Origin: a virus
Lineage: Duplodnaviria; Heunggongvirae; Uroviricota; Caudoviricetes
Strand: one strand, 5' to 3'
IMG/VR virus record: IMGVR_UViG_2541047873_000005
Length of the DNA stretch: 47,737 bases
Shown: piece after piece, positions 3,308 through 43,345 of the stretch
Numbering within the stretch: position 1 is the stretch's first letter
How the letters are laid out: each line of letters opens with the position of its first letter
Notes under the pieces: model-generated
What the model saw: only the letters and a program-made list of their open reading frames with translations
What the model was told of the DNA's origin: nothing
The model's database searches: none
Made by a program: the position numbers and the translations under genes

Positions 3308-3883
3308 CTACGGCAGTGCTGGCCATTCAATATCCTGTGCAGTTGACGTATCAACACGGTTCAGCAATACCCGATACTTTTTCCATGCTTCCAGCAACGA
3401 GATTTCTTCCTCCGTTGCAATTTCCAGATCTGCAGCATCCTGAAGCGGCGCAATATGCTCACTGGCTACCTGCATCAGGTTGTTTTTTGTTTCTTCCGCC
3501 TCCCGGATCCGGAACAGTTTTTCTGCTTCCGTATCCTTCACCCAGGCTGTGCCGTTCCACTTCTGAAACTCCCCTTCCGGGGATAACCAGGTGACATTTT
3601 CCGGTAATGGGCCAAGTTCAGAAATAAATAACGCGTCGCCGGAAGCCACGTCATAGACGGTTTTACCCCGATGATCTTCAACGAGATGCCACGATGCCTC
3701 ATCACTGTTGAAAACAGCCACGAAGCCAGCCGGAATATCTGGCGGTGCAATATCGGTACTGTTTGCTGGCAGACCTGTATGAGGCGGAATATATGCGTCA
3801 CCTTCACCAATAAATTCATTAGTTCCTGCCAGCAGATTATAAATTTTTATGGTCCGTGGTTGTTCACTCATTCTGAATGCCAT
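3308..3883 (-). CDS. tfa: Tail fibre assembly protein Tfa
   Basis: N-terminus [20 protein letters not shown] matches lambda Tfa along its length; ATG overlaps the stf stop (TAATG). Confidence 0.85.
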
Positions 3884-7528: not shown

Positions 7529-10930
<3,402 letters not shown>

Positions 10931-10987
10931 TCACGCTCCATAAACGATAAAACCGCCCGGAGGCGGTTTCACATAAAACATTTTGCA

Positions 10988-28054: not shown

Positions 28055-28325
28055 GATGTTACCGTAGTATGTGAGTATCCATCGAATAGATACCAAGCAA
28101 AAAAGCTCCCGAAGGAGCCTTCATTTTCACTTTTTTAAATCCAACGACAGACGGCTGGCATTTAAGTATTGTGAAATATTATCAAATGTAATCATCATTG
28201 ATTTACAAAAGATACATTTTGCCCCGAAAGGATTCATGTCAGAAACATCAAAAGATGATGTTCTATACTGGGAACCATGACAACACGGGCATCTAAAGTG
28301 AATATGGTTTGTAATATTGTCTACC

Positions 28326-28538
28326 TCAAAGCGCCACTACATGAACAGCGGCAGGACCTTTAGGTCCGTTCTCAATACCAAATTCAACTTCCTGATTCTC
28401 AGTTAATGTTTTGAAATCGTTGCTCTGAATTGCTGAGAAATGGACAAACACATCTTTGCTGCCATCTTTCGGCGTGATGAAACCAAAACCTTTTTCAGGG
28501 TTAAACCATTTCACTAAACCAGTCATTTTGTTAGACAT
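28326..28538 (-). CDS. cspI: Cold shock protein CspI
   Basis: 70 aa [70 protein letters not shown]; RNP1/RNP2 cold-shock domain motifs. Confidence 0.9.
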
Positions 28539-28901
28539 AATTATTACCTTTTGAAGAAATTAGCCCTTGGGCAGAATGGTCCGAAAAAAAATATCAGAGA
28601 GAAAAACCAACAAGGAAATCTCAAGAGGTACAAATAATAAAATTATAACAATGACTGCTTCAGATAAATTTGTAACAAACCAGAACACCATTAACGCATG
28701 ATTAACCACCCATAGCAAGGATTACTTTTGTAAAGAAAAACACAGCAATGAAAGAATAGCTTTATTTATTAATAATAACGTGTCATTCTGATTAAGACCT
28801 TTTATCTTACCCTTAAGATTTCAGGAATTTTGGCTCATGGAAGAGTCCTTTTTATTTAAATTTTACATTCCGCGATGTAAATGTTCCGATTTAATATTAC
28901 C

Positions 28902-30929: not shown

Positions 30930-31210
30930 GAGATTGTGGTGCTTTTTGTGGGAGTCATCCACTTACGCACTTTGTTTTGCCATGCCAGCAGTTAGCTTCT
31001 GCTGTAAAACTATTCATGCAGCAAACCTGCACTTCACCACAATGGTTAGCATACTTTTCCTGATTAAGATTTTGCCAAATATGCTAGCCATTGTTTCATG
31101 TATTGGACCTCCTTACTTTTTATTAAAGAGATCCAATATTCACTACTCTGTCCGTATCTCTACTCAGGCATCAGCCTTCTTCGTTATCGTATACAGACGA
31201 GCGATGAATT

Positions 31211-31426
31211 TTAATCAGTAATGATGACATTTGCTGCTGCAGGACCTTTAGCACCACTCTCTATAGAGAAGGTAACCTTTTGACCTTCAAATAAGGTTCG
31301 ATAATTATCATTCTGAATCGCAGAAAAATGCACAAACACATCTTTACTACCATCAACAGGAGAAATAAAGCCGAAACCTTTATCAGCGTTAAACCATTTT
31401 ACTAAACCAGTCATTTTATTTGACAT
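31211..31426 (-). CDS. cspB: Cold shock protein CspB
   Basis: 71 aa [71 protein letters not shown]. Confidence 0.9.
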
Positions 31427-31726
31427 TCTACATTCCTTAACTTGAGCCTTTCGGCATAAATGGTTTGCATAACAGAAACGACTTCGTACTTAATTGGAGA
31501 GACTCAAAGAAGGAATAAGTGAATAACACCTGAAATGAGAACTGCTTTAGTAAACTACTTCGTATATCGTCTGTTCTTCAAACCGACGCAATCATTAACG
31601 CATAGTTGAACATATGAAGCAATGTTTATTTTAGACATCCAGCCATCTTCAACCCCATCAAAAAACTATAGCTTTCTTCAGGAACGTGTGTATAGTGCGC
31701 CAAGTTATCAGTATTAAGGAATTTTT

Positions 31727-33126: not shown

Positions 33127-34215
33127 TTACGCCAGTACGCCAGTTGCCAGCGCGCGATCGATAAAACGAAATATCAGCTCCAGTTGGGAGCCATACTTCT
33201 CTTCAAATGCCACTGTATCCGTATGCAGCTCGTTGTGATGCTTTCTGCACAAAGGCAACACAAAGAGATCATGTGCTTTTGTTCCCATTCCGCCCTGCCC
33301 GTGACCAATCAGATGATGCGGATCGTCGGCTGGCATACCGCAGCAAGCACACGGCTGTGTCTTAACCCAACGAGTGTATTTCTCCTTAACCCAGCGGCGA
33401 CGTTTAGGCAGCTTCATGAAAGATTCCGGAGACTCTGGATCAACGGTGATGCTTACCACCGTCTTTTCCTGTGGTGGTTTTTGTTGCTGGTGGGCGTAAG
33501 GCAACGGTGCAAGATTTTCTGTGCGTTGTTTCAATATGCTGGTGGCGGTCTGCTCTCCCTGTACGATGTCGCTTTCGCGGTACACCGAGCAGATTTTTTC
33601 CGCTGGTAATCCCAGCGAACGACGCGATACAGCCTCAGGTAGTGCATCCACCACCTGATTGCAGACCGCCCACCAGGATAATTCAGCCAAAGATAATTCC
33701 CGCTCCTGCGTACCGCTTATTGCGTGACGGATGACGTCAATCACCCATGCTGTCAGATTTTGTTGAGCAAGCAGCTCCAGTGATTCCGATGTCTGGTCAC
33801 GCAGTTGGTTGTCGCAGTGCCAGCACAACACCATTGCGCCGGTACCATAACGGTGAATGACTGTTTCAGTGTGATGGTAATCGCCATTAGGCCACTGGCA
33901 GGATGTAACATGACGTAATAGCCAGTCAGACAATGCGCCAACGCCGCCAGTAGCACGAATCACCCGTTCGTTACTAAAAAACGGCAGCAATGTTTTGTCT
34001 TCTGCCAGCGGCTGGCGAACGGCAGGAACGACTCCGGATGGCAGATTTCGCATGCTTTTTGGTTCCGGTTCCACCAGCACTCGAGGATTATGAAATATCT
34101 GTATGGATTCACGGCCCGGCTTAAGGACCACCAGCCCAAGCTCAGGCACCAGAACAGGTCTAAGTAATACCCGCACGTTACCTCCAGATCCGTTGCTGGA
34201 AAGTGCGGGACGCAC
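33127..34215 (-). CDS. ydfU: DUF968 protein YdfU-like (HNH-like Cys/His motif)
   Basis: 362-aa ORF with CACCGMPADDPHHLIGHGQGGMGTKAHDLFVLPLCRKHHNELH; Qin ydfU position. Confidence 0.7.
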   Translation of the reverse strand: MRPALSSNGSGGNVRVLLRPVLVPELGLVVLKPGRESIQIFHNPRVLVEPEPKSMRNLPSGVVPAVRQPLAEDKTLLPFFSNERVIRATGGVGALSDWLLRHVTSCQWPNGDYHHTETVIHRYGTGAMVLCWHCDNQLRDQTSESLELLAQQNLTAWVIDVIRHAISGTQERELSLAELSWWAVCNQVVDALPEAVSRRSLGLPAEKICSVYRESDIVQGEQTATSILKQRTENLAPLPYAHQQQKPPQEKTVVSITVDPESPESFMKLPKRRRWVKEKYTRWVKTQPCACCGMPADDPHHLIGHGQGGMGTKAHDLFVLPLCRKHHNELHTDTVAFEEKYGSQLELIFRFIDRALATGVLA

Positions 34216-34456
34216 GTGGTGGGCGTTCGGAATAAGGCAGCCTGACAGAGATTATCCAGTGCCGATAGTCGAGACTGAGAGCTTTCTTAACCTCGAACCC
34301 GCGCCTGCGGTAAGAATGAATCAGCCATTCGGCCTGTTCTGCAGTGCATGGAGGGTGCTGGAACCATTCAGACTTGAATGCGTGAGAATACCGCCCGTGC
34401 GTGCAGGCAAGAACGGGCGAATTATCAGAATTGTAATATTTTACGTTGCGTGCCAT
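34178..34456 (-). CDS. rem: Rem-like protein
   Basis: Small ORF between ydfU and hok region, as rem in Qin; start uncertain. Confidence 0.55.
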   Translation of the reverse strand: MARNVKYYNSDNSPVLACTHGRYSHAFKSEWFQHPPCTAEQAEWLIHSYRRRGFEVKKALSLDYRHWIISVRLPYSERPPRASRTFQQRIWR

Positions 34457-34522
34457 CGGTTTTCTCCGGTGGCACGGTGTTACTCAGCGGGAGTTCAGCC
34501 CCGCGCAAGATTGTAGATGAGT

Positions 34523-34774
34523 TTATTCTTCTGCAAAAGCAGAAAAGCCAGCTTTTATTCCGATCTCTTTCAATGCCTGTAATGAAGTGACAAACTCACC
34601 TTCGCGCAAGATAAATCCGTCCGTGACCCGAGCATCCACAAAATTAATTAACGCAGCCCCATTCTTTCGCAAACACATAATGCGGTAATGACTAACAAGA
34701 TTTCCATTTTCAACGCACACAGCATAGAGGCCATCTTCACAAAAAATTTTACGCAGTTCTTCGATGTTCATCAT
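34523..34774 (-). CDS. Hypothetical protein (83 aa), unknown function
   Basis: ORF with AAGGA RBS 6 nt upstream of ATG; sits between rem and hok; no recognisable family. Confidence 0.5.
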   Translation of the reverse strand: MMNIEELRKIFCEDGLYAVCVENGNLVSHYRIMCLRKNGAALINFVDARVTDGFILREGEFVTSLQALKEIGIKAGFSAFAEE

Positions 34775-34892
34775 CAGAATCCTTCCGGATAATTAGCTCT
34801 CCCCTTTAAGGGACCATCCCTCTTATCCCTGCGCGCTACTTAAGTATTTTTGATTCTATTCCGGCACCGTCCAGATCTTCAAACGCGTTGAA

Positions 34893-34923
34893 AATAAAAA
34901 CAAAAACCCGCCGAAGCGGGTTA
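34893..34923 (-). terminator. Rho-independent terminator at 3' end of hok mRNA
   Basis: Hairpin AACCCGC-ttcg-GCGGGTT followed by long U-run on the minus strand. Confidence 0.55.
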
Positions 34924-34990: not shown

Positions 34991-35146
34991 TTACTCCTCA
35001 GGTTCGTAAGCTGTGAAGACAGCGACCTCCGTCTGGCCGGTTCGGATTCGTACCTCGCAGAGGTCTTTCCTCGTTACCAGTGCCGTCACTATGACGGTTA
35101 AACAGATGACGATCAGGGCGATTAACATCGCCTTTTGCTGCTTCAT
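34991..35146 (-). CDS. hokD: Hok-family membrane toxin HokD (RelF)
   Basis: 51 aa MKQQKAMLIALIVICLTVIVTALVTRKDLCEVRIRTGQTEVAVFTAYEPEE matches HokD; track ORF 34991..35203 carries an in-frame upstream extension. Confidence 0.9.
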   Translation of the reverse strand: MKQQKAMLIALIVICLTVIVTALVTRKDLCEVRIRTGQTEVAVFTAYEPEE

Positions 35147-35935
35147 AGCCTGCTTCTCCTTGCCTTTCGGCTCGTAAGAGGCTAACCTACATGTGTCTAG
35201 CATGAAATTGGCCTCAGATTAATGTTAAGCGTCTTGCAGGACGCGTAATGTTAACTGGGGCTTTTCTCTATCTGCCTTTGGTGTTCATGCCCGAGGCAGA
35301 TAGCCTCAAGCACCCGCAGCCATTCTACTTAACTACCGTTACCTCGCCAATATGAAATCAGTCAGAAAGGCGATCCATAAGAACAATAGCAAGACAATAA
35401 ATCGCCATTACAGCCGTAATAGCCAGCGCACATTTGAGAACCAGCACCACAACCTCCTGTATTGGACGTAGACCAGTCCTGATGAATATGAGGCTGTCTC
35501 GTCAGTGATTCAATACAACTATTGGGTATAGTTTCTCTGATTTTTTCTGTGGAAATGGGGCACAACCACTAGTCACCACCAGCACTTCTTTTAATACGCA
35601 AAGTCCGACACAAGCTAACCTTCTAGTCCGCTTTGAGCGAAAAACAGCCATAATTTAGTGCCACGTATATAATGATAGAGCTATTCAAGCTAGCAATTCA
35701 CATGTAAAAATTCAGAGGGTAGAAGCACATAGTTATAAATGTTGGCTCCATCGACAAATTGCGGTCTCAAGTACATTTATTAATGTTGCCCCCGCATTAA
35801 CAAATCATCAAGGTGACGACATGGACGATATTAATATCAGCCTCGACGAACTTAACACTATTGATTTATCCCCCTTAATCCTGAACCGCCCCGGGAATCC
35901 TGGAGACTAAACTTCCTGAGAAAGAGGTAAACAGG

Positions 35936-36262
35936 ATGACTAAAAATACTCGTTTTTCCCCCGAAGTCCGTCAACGGGCAGTCCGTATGGTTCTGGAAAG
36001 TCAGAGCGAATATGACTCACAATGGGCGACAATTTGTTCCATTGCTCCAAAGATTGGCTGTACGCCGGAGACTCTGCGTGTCTGGGTTCGCCAGCATGAG
36101 CGGGATACCGGGGGCGGTGATGGAGGGCTCACCACCGCTGAACGTCAGCGTCTGAAAGAGCTGGAACGTGAAAATCGTGAACTGCGCCGCAGTAACGATA
36201 TCCTTCGCCAGGCTTCCGCTTATTTTGCGAAGGCGGAGTTCGACCGCCTCTGGAAAAAATGA
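35936..36262 (+). CDS. IS629 transposase OrfA (HTH)
   Basis: 108 aa [37 protein letters not shown]...; ends next to an A6 run usable for -1 frameshift into orfB. Confidence 0.9.
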
Positions 36263-37149
36263 TGCCACTGCTGGATAAGCTGCGTGAGCAGTACGGGGTC
36301 GGACCGCTATGCAGCGAACTGCATATTGCCCCGTCAACGTATTACCACTGTCAGCAACAGCGACATCATCCGGATAAACGCAGTGCCCGTGCGCAGCGCG
36401 ATGACTGGCTGAAGAAAGAGATACAGCGCGTATACGATGAAAATCACAAGGTATACGGTGTGCGTAAAGTCTGGCGTCAGTTGTTACGGGAAGGTATCAG
36501 AGTGGCCAGATGCACTGTGGCACGTCTCATGGCGGTTATGGGACTTGCCGGTGTTCTCCGGGGTAAAAAGGTCCGTACGACCATCAGCCGGAAAGCCGTT
36601 GCCGCAGGCGACCGCGTAAACCGTCAGTTCGTGGCAGAACGACCTGACCAGCTGTGGGTGGCTGATTTTACTTACGTCAGCACATGGCGGGGCTTCGTCT
36701 ATGTGGCGTTCATCATTGATGTGTTTGCCGGATACATCGTGGGGTGGCGGGTCTCATCGTCCATGGAAACGACATTCGTGCTGGATGCACTGGAGCAGGC
36801 GTTATGGGCCCGTCGACCGTCCGGCACGGTCCATCACAGTGATAAAGGTTCTCAGTATGTATCGCTGGCCTACACACAGCGGCTTAAGGAAGCCGGATTA
36901 CTGGCATCAACAGGAAGTACAGGCGACTCGTATGACAACGCGATGGCGGAGAGCATCAATGGTCTTTACAAAGCGGAGGTAATACACCGTAAGAGCTGGA
37001 AAAACCGTGCAGAAGTGGAACTGGCCACACTCACGTGGGTGGACTGGTATAACAATCGACGATTGCTGGAAAGGCTGGGCCATACTCCTCCGGCAGAAGC
37101 AGAAAAAGCTTATTATGCTTCCATCGGAAACGATGATCTGGCAGCCTGA
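36259..37149 (+). CDS. IS629 transposase OrfB (DDE integrase core)
   Basis: 296 aa, -1 frame overlap with orfA; DDE motifs (WVADFTY..., HSDKGSQY..., DNAMAES). Confidence 0.9.
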
Positions 37150-37385
37150 GTTCACAGATAAAACACTCTCCAGGAAACCCGGGGCGGTTCATCCAGAGTA
37201 AGCTGCCAGTTACCTGCTTTGATATCACAAAGTATCTTTCTAGCCTAGGTGATGGAAGAGCGGAGATAAGACTGCTAACCCATATTTGCGGTTTTCACTT
37301 TCGTCCCGAAAATCCACAGGTACCATTTGGTCCGTGCTTTCAAAGCAGCCAAGGTAGATCTGCAATTCCGGATGACATTAACGGG

Positions 37386-40601: not shown

Positions 40602-41049
40602 TTGCTTTTTCTATAAGTTCGTCAGTTTCACGATCCACTACGGCAGGATCAGCAAAAAGCAGTCCGGACTCCACCACATCGCCATATTCTTTGTTTAACC
40701 CGGCGATCATGTACGTGATGCTTTTTCCGTCACTAATTTCACGATACAACCTGAAATCATTAATCCGGATAGCCTCCATAATTGCAGGCACTAGCGCCGT
40801 GAACTTTTCACGCTTATCCCTGGTGTCGATAGCCTTCCAGCGTTCGAATATCTTCACTCGATTAACGCCAAGCGCTCGCTGATCAACCGCGCCACCTTCA
40901 TCTGTGACACGCTGAACATCGATGTTCGGGCGCTCTTTCAAAGCCCAGAATGCTTCAGTGATTAATATCGTCGCCTGCTCCTGTGTCATTCCTGGTCGAC
41001 ATATCCAGGCATCCAGAGCCTCACGAGCCTGTTCAGGAGTGATTTTCAT
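40528..41049 (-). CDS. Hypothetical protein (173 aa) in the cII/YdaT position
   Basis: ORF between cro-like gene and replication initiator; weak resemblance to Rac YdaT around KREKFTALVPAI. Confidence 0.45.
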   Translation of the reverse strand: MKITPEQAREALDAWICRPGMTQEQATILITEAFWALKERPNIDVQRVTDEGGAVDQRALGVNRVKIFERWKAIDTRDKREKFTALVPAIMEAIRINDFRLYREISDGKSITYMIAGLNKEYGDVVESGLLFADPAVVDRETDELIEKAIAFKLAYRQQYQQKAGWNYEPSFC

Positions 41050-41260
41050 TGTTCAACCGCCCCGCCCGCTTCGTCTTACGATATTCGTCATAAACCTTGG
41101 GATCATACAGAAGCTCGCCGCCAGATGCCTCCTGTAGACGCATCGCGCGACCTTCAGGAACCAGCTCTTGCCATTGAGAAACAGCAGATGGGTCAACGCC
41201 AGCAGCTTTCGCTACTTTGGCTTTCGTACCGTAAAAATTAATTACGTCTGATTTAAACAT
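41033..41260 (-). CDS. dicC: Cro-like repressor DicC
   Basis: 75 aa; C-terminal half LVPEGRAMRLQEASGGELLYDPKVYDEYRKTKRAGRLNNENHS matches recalled K-12 DicC; divergent from dicA. Confidence 0.75.
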   Translation of the reverse strand: MFKSDVINFYGTKAKVAKAAGVDPSAVSQWQELVPEGRAMRLQEASGGELLYDPKVYDEYRKTKRAGRLNNENHS

Positions 41261-41337: not shown

Positions 41338-41745
41338 ATGAACGAGAAAACTTTAGGTCAACGCATTAGAGAAAGACGTAAGCAGGTAGGTTTAAGTCAA
41401 AACGGTTTAAGCAAAGCTGCTGGCGTATCTGGCTCATCAATTTCATTATGGGAAAGTGACCATACAGCCCCGCGCGGGCAAAATTTGCATCGCCTCGCCG
41501 AGGTATTGCAATGTTCACCAACCTGGATACTGTTTGGCGACGAGGACAAAACACCAGCTCCCCCTGTTTCACTCGATAGTGCCTTAGACTTATCGGAAGA
41601 TGAGTTAGAGATGCTGCGTTTGTATCGCGCACTTCCTAAATCAGAGCAACAAGCACAACTCAGCGAACTCCGCGCCCGCGTTGAGAATTTTAATCGCCTG
41701 TTCACCGAGCTATTAGAGGCTCGCAAACGCAACAAGCATCAATAA
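41338..41745 (+). CDS. dicA: cI-like repressor DicA (HTH XRE family)
   Basis: 135 aa from MNEKTLGQRIRERRKQ...; shares VLQCSPTWILFGDEDK and C-terminal pattern with K-12 DicA. Confidence 0.8.
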   Translation: MNEKTLGQRIRERRKQVGLSQNGLSKAAGVSGSSISLWESDHTAPRGQNLHRLAEVLQCSPTWILFGDEDKTPAPPVSLDSALDLSEDELEMLRLYRALPKSEQQAQLSELRARVENFNRLFTELLEARKRNKHQ

Positions 41746-42928: not shown

Positions 42929-42987
42929 TTTTCTGGTGACGTTTGGCGGTATCAGTTTTACTCCGTGACTGCTCTGCCGCCGTTTTT
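42929..42987 (+). ncRNA. dicF: DicF small RNA (ftsZ-targeting, Hfq-dependent) with intrinsic terminator
   Basis: TTTCTGGTGACGTTTGGCGGTATCAGTTTTACTCCGTGACTGCTCTGCCGCC followed by T5 matches the recalled DicF sequence; located between ydfC and dicB. Confidence 0.85.
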
Positions 42988-43156: not shown

Positions 43157-43345
43157 ATGAAAACGTTATTACCAAACGTTAATACGTCTGAAGGTTGTTT
43201 TGAAATTGGTGTCACTATCAGTAACCCTGTATTTACTGAAGATGCCATTAACAAGAGAAAACAAGAACGGGAGCTATTAAATAAAATATGCATTGTTTCA
43301 ATGCTGGCTCGTTTACGTCTGATGCCAAAAGGATGTGCACAATGA
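43157..43345 (+). CDS. dicB: Cell division inhibitor DicB (MinC activator)
   Basis: 62 aa MKTLLPNVNTSEGCFEIGVTISNPVFTEDAINKRKQERELLNKICIVSMLARLRLMPKGCAQ. Confidence 0.9.
   Translation: MKTLLPNVNTSEGCFEIGVTISNPVFTEDAINKRKQERELLNKICIVSMLARLRLMPKGCAQ

Follow-up and report, generated by a model that had tools for sequence, protein, structure and literature searches.

The window analysed here, a 47,737-nucleotide stretch of viral DNA (IMG/VR record IMGVR_UViG_2541047873_000005), carries an 83-codon open reading frame on its minus strand at 34523..34774, near hok. As a preliminary description of the locus had stated, the frame begins with ATG (34774..34772) and is preceded by an AAGGA ribosome-binding site; this Shine-Dalgarno sequence, read from the DNA, lies at 34784..34780 on the minus strand, 5 nt ahead of the start codon. 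A second in-frame ATG (34771..34769) follows directly. Because the first codon is TTG in the leader variants of the 70%-identity clade, this second ATG may be the conserved start.

The frame is a real and already known gene, rem itself. Its product and K-12 Rem (b1561; presumably UniProt P07010) have the same length and are identical at 81 of 83 residues (98%, E = 2e-60), with the two differing residues at the C terminus, which reads AFAEE in the window and AFSGE in K-12. At the DNA level, the window and K-12 Qin match nearly base for base from ydfU through rem into the hokD coding sequence, and the homology stops about 14 nt upstream of the hokD ATG. Homologues are common: a megablast search with 34400..34900 found a match in 3012 of 5426 complete E. 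coli genomes, and the RefSeq feature beneath this segment is "rem: protein Rem" in all matches listed. The preliminary description could assign the frame to no family. It matches PHROG 340 at 1.2e-21, and the precomputed Pfam assignment of all 138 Rem homologues is PF27490; a local Pfam-A scan of the rem frame gave no match in a copy of the database from which the PF27490 model is missing.

The frame had also been placed between rem and hokD, at a position where Qin was said to carry nothing comparable. In fact, K-12 MG1655 Qin holds rem at the same place, in the order ydfT - ydfU - rem (b1561) - hokD - relE - relB, and the order hokD - rem - ydfU recurs in mEp460_ev081 and PPompW. A Rac-like phage keeps hok and rem together and has irsA after rem in place of ydfU. 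The frame that had been taken for rem is probably a 92-aa frame between rem and ydfU (34178..34456, minus strand), which matches PHROG 1212. This second frame is annotated in strain 118UI, where the gene order is hokD - rem - hypothetical (279 bp) - ydfU - ydfT, and in PPompW phages; the K-12 MG1655 copy is intact and unannotated and differs by one amino acid. In one locus with a distant Rem relative (L098), a homologue of the 92-aa frame (10768..10968) lies about 600 nt downstream of that relative, with one frame between them.

The comparative set comprised 174 IMG/VR loci with Rem relatives and three phage records, and Rem clades were drawn by identity to the window protein (at least 95%, 65-80%, and 50-65%). 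Across 171 loci there are 51 distinct rem coding sequences encoding 38 distinct proteins. Pairwise Nei-Gojobori estimates give dN/dS ratios of 0.12 at dS 1.0-1.5 and 0.26 at dS 0.5-1.0, a clear indication at the sequence level of purifying selection on rem. Because there are 38 protein variants and dN/dS lies between 0.12 and 0.26, we regard 34523..34774 as a genuine gene rather than a reading frame that arose by chance.

Upstream of rem on the same strand lies hok/mok (34991..35203, minus strand), in which the hok coding sequence (34991..35146; 51 aa, identical to HokD) sits inside a 70-aa mok frame that matches Pfam HOK_GEF (3e-23) and also PHROG 251, "MokW-like". The hok mRNA leader and sok antitoxin region lie at 35141..35315 on the minus strand (Rfam RF01794 sok, 116 bits); in K-12, relBE stands in its place. 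The preliminary description was correct that relBE is absent beside the window's hok, and this is the usual state; of 161 related loci, only 3 have RelE flanking hok. In loci L007 (6129..9628), L011 and L013, relBE lies beside hokD, and about 3.3 kb separate the hok coding sequence from a mok/sok leader upstream of it. Because that leader persists there, the relBE segment was apparently inserted into an ancestral hok/sok locus and divided it. For K-12 (L002), a search of 8.5 kb upstream of hok found no mok/sok leader.

The gap between hok and rem in the window is about 216-220 nt. On the minus strand it contains, at 34905..34922, a predicted intrinsic terminator hairpin, AACCCGCTTCGGCGGGTT, with a T run, which would end the hok transcript and part hok from rem; the hairpin is kept even in loci with another gene upstream. 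Next comes a candidate promoter for rem that resembles the sigma-70 type, TTGAAG - 18 nt - TAGAAT (34853..34882, minus strand), suggested by a consensus scan and by alignments, and then a conserved leader (34775..34852, minus strand), whose core, TAGCGCGCAGGGAnAAGAGGGATGG, is near invariant in the alignments of all Rem clades. The -10 element TAGAAT is retained in all Rem-clade leaders, and this element and the next ~75 nt are conserved in all clades, even where the sequences ahead of the -10 have no relation to one another. A comparison of clades A and B gives 88% identity for the leader and 59% for rem third codon positions. Several GGA motifs occur in the leader, together with a CCCY/RGGG hairpin in which the stem pairing is kept and the loop is variable. 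RNAalifold gives three leader helices with one compensatory exchange of A-U for U-A, for which covariation statistics are weak, and the fold showed no extra stability over shuffled sequence (z = 0.04). The leader matched no Rfam family, and a search for its core elsewhere in the window, the dicA/dicC operators included, found no repeat.

Over most of its length the window is 95-98% identical to lambdoid prophages of the mEp460_ev081/HannyBb/PhiR42_1 kind. It spans integrase to tail fibres and looks like an intact, complete mEp460-type prophage. Several further elements were observed in it. An IS3-family insertion (35885..37190; OrfA, 108 aa; OrfB, 296 aa), absent from strain 118UI, has its ALIL frameshift pseudoknot at 36217..36333 and breaks a 595-aa DUF7380/DUF4209 gene about 60 nt past its start; in PADLOC, the interrupted gene has a match to PDC-S39, a candidate defence protein (E = 6e-95). 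Two cspA-type thermoregulator leaders (28299..28684 and 31195..31587, minus strand) belong to cspB/cspF-like cold-shock genes of Qin, and a match to the IS009 RNA family lies near the tail-fibre end (3342..3540, minus strand).

This prophage includes a short DicA-family repressor gene of the HTH_3 type (41338..41745, plus strand), located 6.6 kb from rem. Its 135-aa product is 57% identical to K-12 DicA. The functional temperate phage mEp460_ev081, whose Rem is 99% identical to that of the window, has the identical repressor. Beside the repressor gene of the window lies a Cro-like DicC homologue (41033..41260, minus strand; 70% identical to K-12 DicC). The DicF small RNA (42931..42982, plus strand; Rfam RF00039, 72.5 bits) and dicB (43157..43345, plus strand) follow, the latter encoding 62 aa that are 100% identical to K-12 DicB by tblastn and translation; a YdfA-like DUF1391 protein is also encoded in the window. 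The window thus holds a DicA-like repressor, DicC, DicF, dicB and rem, and therefore every part of the published switch described below is present, with dicB as its output.

The frame had been called uncharacterised, and yet the function of rem has been published. Ragunathan et al. (J Bacteriol 2023, PMC10448788), taking the Gifsy antirepressors of Salmonella as their starting point, set out to find the antirepressor that counters DicA, a short and non-cleavable protein that acts as the Qin repressor. When rem was expressed ectopically in K-12, an in-locus dicBp-lacZ fusion rose 165-fold in activity, and three other antirepressor candidates had no effect on the fusion. Expression of rem thus has a strong effect: in wild-type K-12 it led to filamentation and growth arrest, both of which were absent in a qin deletion and in a dicB dicF double mutant (PMC10448788). 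DicF is encoded in the operon that Rem derepresses in K-12 (PMC10448788). Deletion of rem in K-12 left DicF accumulation, spontaneous switching and induction by urea all unchanged, mitomycin C did not induce dicBp, and the functional phage mEp460_ev081 was noted to have dicA, dicC, dicBF and rem (PMC10448788). Since the frame is rem, is borne by K-12 Qin at the same spot and encodes a published DicA antirepressor, the finding is an ordinary one. Its main value is as a correction: a frame supposed to be uncharacterised and absent from Qin is a K-12 gene that already has a name and a known, published function.

In lambdoid prophages of the Qin type (mEp460-like), rem is the gene of a small antirepressor and is situated in the nin-like segment that separates the replication genes from the Q antiterminator. 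Taken together, these observations suggest that it acts via the DicA-family repressor of its own prophage. Once made, Rem would inactivate the short, non-cleavable repressor encoded at 41338..41745, its presumed target, and it would do so by direct protein-protein binding if the analogy with Gifsy GfoA and GftA holds. Loss of the repressor would derepress both the leftward ydfA-dicF-dicB operon and the side of the cro-like gene dicC, leading to arrest of cell division and, in an intact prophage, to lytic development. Within the locus, rem would form its own transcription unit beyond the hok terminator, read from the candidate -35/-10 elements through the conserved leader of ~75 nt, and the neighbouring hok/mok/sok genes would be a separate, self-contained type I toxin-antitoxin locus. 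We put the probability of this explanation as a whole at roughly 85%. The preliminary description had offered the frame as a candidate regulatory or toxin-antitoxin-related protein; the regulatory half of that proposal holds, and the toxin-antitoxin half does not, the demonstrated role being that of a DicA antirepressor (PMC10448788) and not of a toxin-antitoxin component or a hok regulator. None of the outcomes that it had named as refuting (rare homologues not conserved with hok, no purifying selection, no effect of expression) was observed.

The step in this explanation from K-12 to the window concerns the partner of Rem. We infer that Rem acts on the window's repressor, which is 57% identical to DicA, whereas Rem is 98% identical to K-12 Rem, and this difference in divergence is what lends some weight to another reading, namely that Rem is a working antirepressor that does not serve against its own prophage's repressor and either acts only in trans, on K-12-like DicA repressors of other resident prophages, or is an idle passenger. 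The pattern of association between Rem and repressors is compatible with such a reading. A DicA-family repressor lies within 10 kb of rem in 99 of the 107 loci that have at least 8 kb of upstream flank, and these repressors sort into four types, with 52-63% identity between types in those comparisons that were made. Clade A of Rem is paired with repressor types 0, 1 and 2 (33, 9 and 15 loci, respectively), clade B with all four, and one Rem allele (at least 98% identical) is found with three heteroimmune types; clades and types assort without correlation. In Salmonella, moreover, Gifsy antirepressors work in trans on other prophages, and the Gifsy-2 repressor is insensitive to GfoA and GfhA (PMC3121763). 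Set against this, the Rem and repressor type of the window form the commonest pairing (33 of 57 clade-A loci), the same pairing is present in the functional phage mEp460_ev081, and selection on rem is purifying in all backgrounds. The repressor types also have long stretches in common that could serve as a docking site: all carry LxCSPTW(I/L)xFGDEDK and a C-terminal SE(L/M)RARVxNFNxLF helix. We therefore consider it improbable that Rem bypasses the repressor of its own prophage.

If Rem does act on that repressor, the shuffling of Rem alleles and repressor types would fit an antirepressor that recognises a surface conserved in the repressor family, as is the case for GfoA and GfhA, which act on the heteroimmune repressors GfoR and GfhR (PMC3121763). 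The free assortment of the four repressor types with the three Rem clades was seen across the window (41338..41745) and loci L007-L180. Such assortment predicts antirepressor cross-talk between co-resident Qin-type prophages, as in the Gifsy phages of Salmonella.

The adjacency to hok, from which the earlier suggestion of a toxin-antitoxin role arose, is real. Co-occurrence with hok across prophages was found, hok lying upstream of rem on the same strand in 165 of the 167 loci with at least 450 nt of upstream sequence, mostly at a distance of 219-221 nt (124 loci), and the adjacency persists in Rem clades that are 59-70% identical. Together with the toxicity of Rem overproduction in wild-type K-12 (PMC10448788), this joint travel could be taken to mean that Rem is tied functionally to Hok, as a regulator, a second antitoxin or a co-toxin. 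The toxicity itself argues otherwise, as neither the qin deletion nor the dicB dicF double mutant shows it, and the double mutant, unharmed by Rem overproduction, still carries hokD (PMC10448788). In the window, hok has its own mok/sok control region, and rem neither overlaps it nor appears to be cotranscribed with it, the 216-nt gap being predicted from sequence to hold the terminator hairpin, the T run and the separate promoter-like site. In about 22 loci the distance between hok and rem grows to 1.1 or 2.06 kb through inserted DNA, and distant Rem relatives have a LexA box and lack hok. The block from hok to the leader is nearly identical between clades in which rem has diverged to dS ~1.1, so that linkage within a mosaic module is enough to account for the synteny. 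Searches of Rem against PADLOC and toxin-antitoxin families gave no match, and none of the PDB sequences was related below E = 0.5. An identity with SocB_toxin was considered and set aside as noise, the NCBIfam score being 15 bits against a cut-off of 210. A functional tie to hok is thus largely refuted for K-12, and we consider it very improbable.

The reading of rem as the antirepressor gene of its own prophage leaves the question of what switches rem on. A LexA box (CTGTN8ACAG, at most one mismatch) was sought in the ~370 nt upstream of rem and was found neither in the window nor in any of 168 Rem-clade loci. Because no LexA box lies upstream of rem, the signal that induces it appears not to be SOS. 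The missing box agrees with the lack of induction by mitomycin C that was reported for K-12 (PMC10448788).

The rem leader is the sole part of the locus lacking a prior explanation. Several GGA motifs, such as it contains, recall leaders of the CsrA type, and the rem leader could be an element of translational control for CsrA or for a small RNA. A literature search for a link between CsrA and rem, and for b1561, returned nothing relevant. On a speculative reading, the LexA box and dinI by which related antirepressors are controlled may have given way, in the Rem clade of E. coli, to the hok/sok terminator, a fixed -10 element and the ~75-nt leader, and the leader may sense the non-SOS signal that triggers Rem and hence the induction of Qin/mEp460-type prophages; we offer this as a tentative idea that is rather less likely to be right than wrong. 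What is new here is the synteny with hok and the intervening terminator, the selection on rem, the assortment of Rem alleles and repressors, and a clade devoid of LexA boxes with a conserved leader. These comparative data sharpen the question carried over from the 2023 paper (PMC10448788) as to what turns rem on.

The family to which Rem belongs is narrow. A profile search of 1.84 billion representative sequences gave 55 matches, most of them fragments of the Rem family from Escherichia and Shigella and the remainder a handful of short enterobacterial proteins (56-99 aa), for example from Cronobacter. An invariant core, GF.L(R).(D/E)EFVTS....AG, is common to Rem and these short relatives. An AlphaFold2 model of Rem of only moderate confidence, built from a 28-sequence alignment (pLDDT 62.9), predicts a helix at residues 4-10 and a four-stranded sheet at residues 16-56 (pLDDT 70-80); the C-terminal third, which is the most conserved part, has pLDDT below 50. 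Such a model is compatible with a C-terminal third that folds on its partner, and is no proof of it. A Foldseek search of the model against PDB and BFVD returned no match with E at or below 0.001.

Among known systems, the closest is Rem of K-12 Qin. The likeness covers the neighbours (ydfU and the 92-aa frame downstream, hokD upstream), the leader and the promoter region. The window differs from Qin in that its hok keeps the mok/sok leader, whereas K-12 has relBE instead; in that its repressor, at 57% identity to DicA, is of a different immunity type; and in that its prophage looks complete, whereas Qin is cryptic. The hok/sok type I loci, by comparison, are linked to rem by adjacency only. 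Rem differs from them in lacking a Hok/Gef domain, a membrane segment and any role as an RNA antitoxin, and its toxicity is indirect, via dicBF.

Short homologues with LexA boxes occur in prophages of other Enterobacteriaceae (for example the Cronobacter P0166 cluster and the loci L098 and L099). They have the core GF.LRE.EFVTS...AG and a position in the nin region in common with Rem; the distant homologues of 72-74 aa stand after replication genes or before nin genes, as at L098 and L099. Unlike Rem, they are 56-74 aa long, lack the N-terminal helix and beta part and are not accompanied by hok. Canonical LexA boxes lie about 100-150 nt upstream of their start codons, and those of L098 and L099 are perfect (TACTGTATTTATGTACAGT and TACTGTATGCGTATACAGT). 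As judged from sequence, the layout in these two loci is the arrangement of Gifsy-type antirepressors.

The Gifsy antirepressors GfoA, GfhA and GftA, and FsoA of Fels-1 (PMC3121763), resemble Rem in size (~70-85 aa), in lying outside the immunity region in a nin-like segment after a terminator, and in countering short, non-cleavable repressors of the DicA/GfoR type. They can act on heteroimmune repressors, with which the assortment of Rem and repressors is compatible, and in one Rac-like prophage rem stands just before irsA, as gftA does. The modules differ in what comes first: a LexA box and dinI precede the Gifsy genes (in Gifsy-2, terminator - promoter - LexA box - dinI - gftA - irsA), whereas rem follows hok/sok. 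They differ also in the evidence for mechanism, as direct repressor binding is established for the Gifsy proteins, GfoA and GftA binding their repressors and releasing them from DNA (Lemire et al. 2011, PMC3121763), whereas for Rem it is suggested by analogy. At the protein level, the link between Rem and GfoA/FsoA in PMC10448788 was an intermediate PSI-BLAST match with 33% identity, and in our comparison of the Rem profile with Gifsy-2 GftA, hhalign gave a probability of 0.4%, with no detectable similarity. Because GftA was not matched, homology between Rem and the Gifsy proteins is not established here, and the analogy is functional and positional only. The Gifsy-2 terminator hairpin before the LexA box, dinI and gftA (CCCGCTGCGGCGGG; L181, 10980..11000) nearly matches the one that precedes the rem promoter in the window (CCCGCTTCGGCGGG; 34905..34922). 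Despite the lack of detectable protein similarity, this resemblance in sequence hints that the rem and Gifsy-2 antirepressor modules may be of common ancestry.
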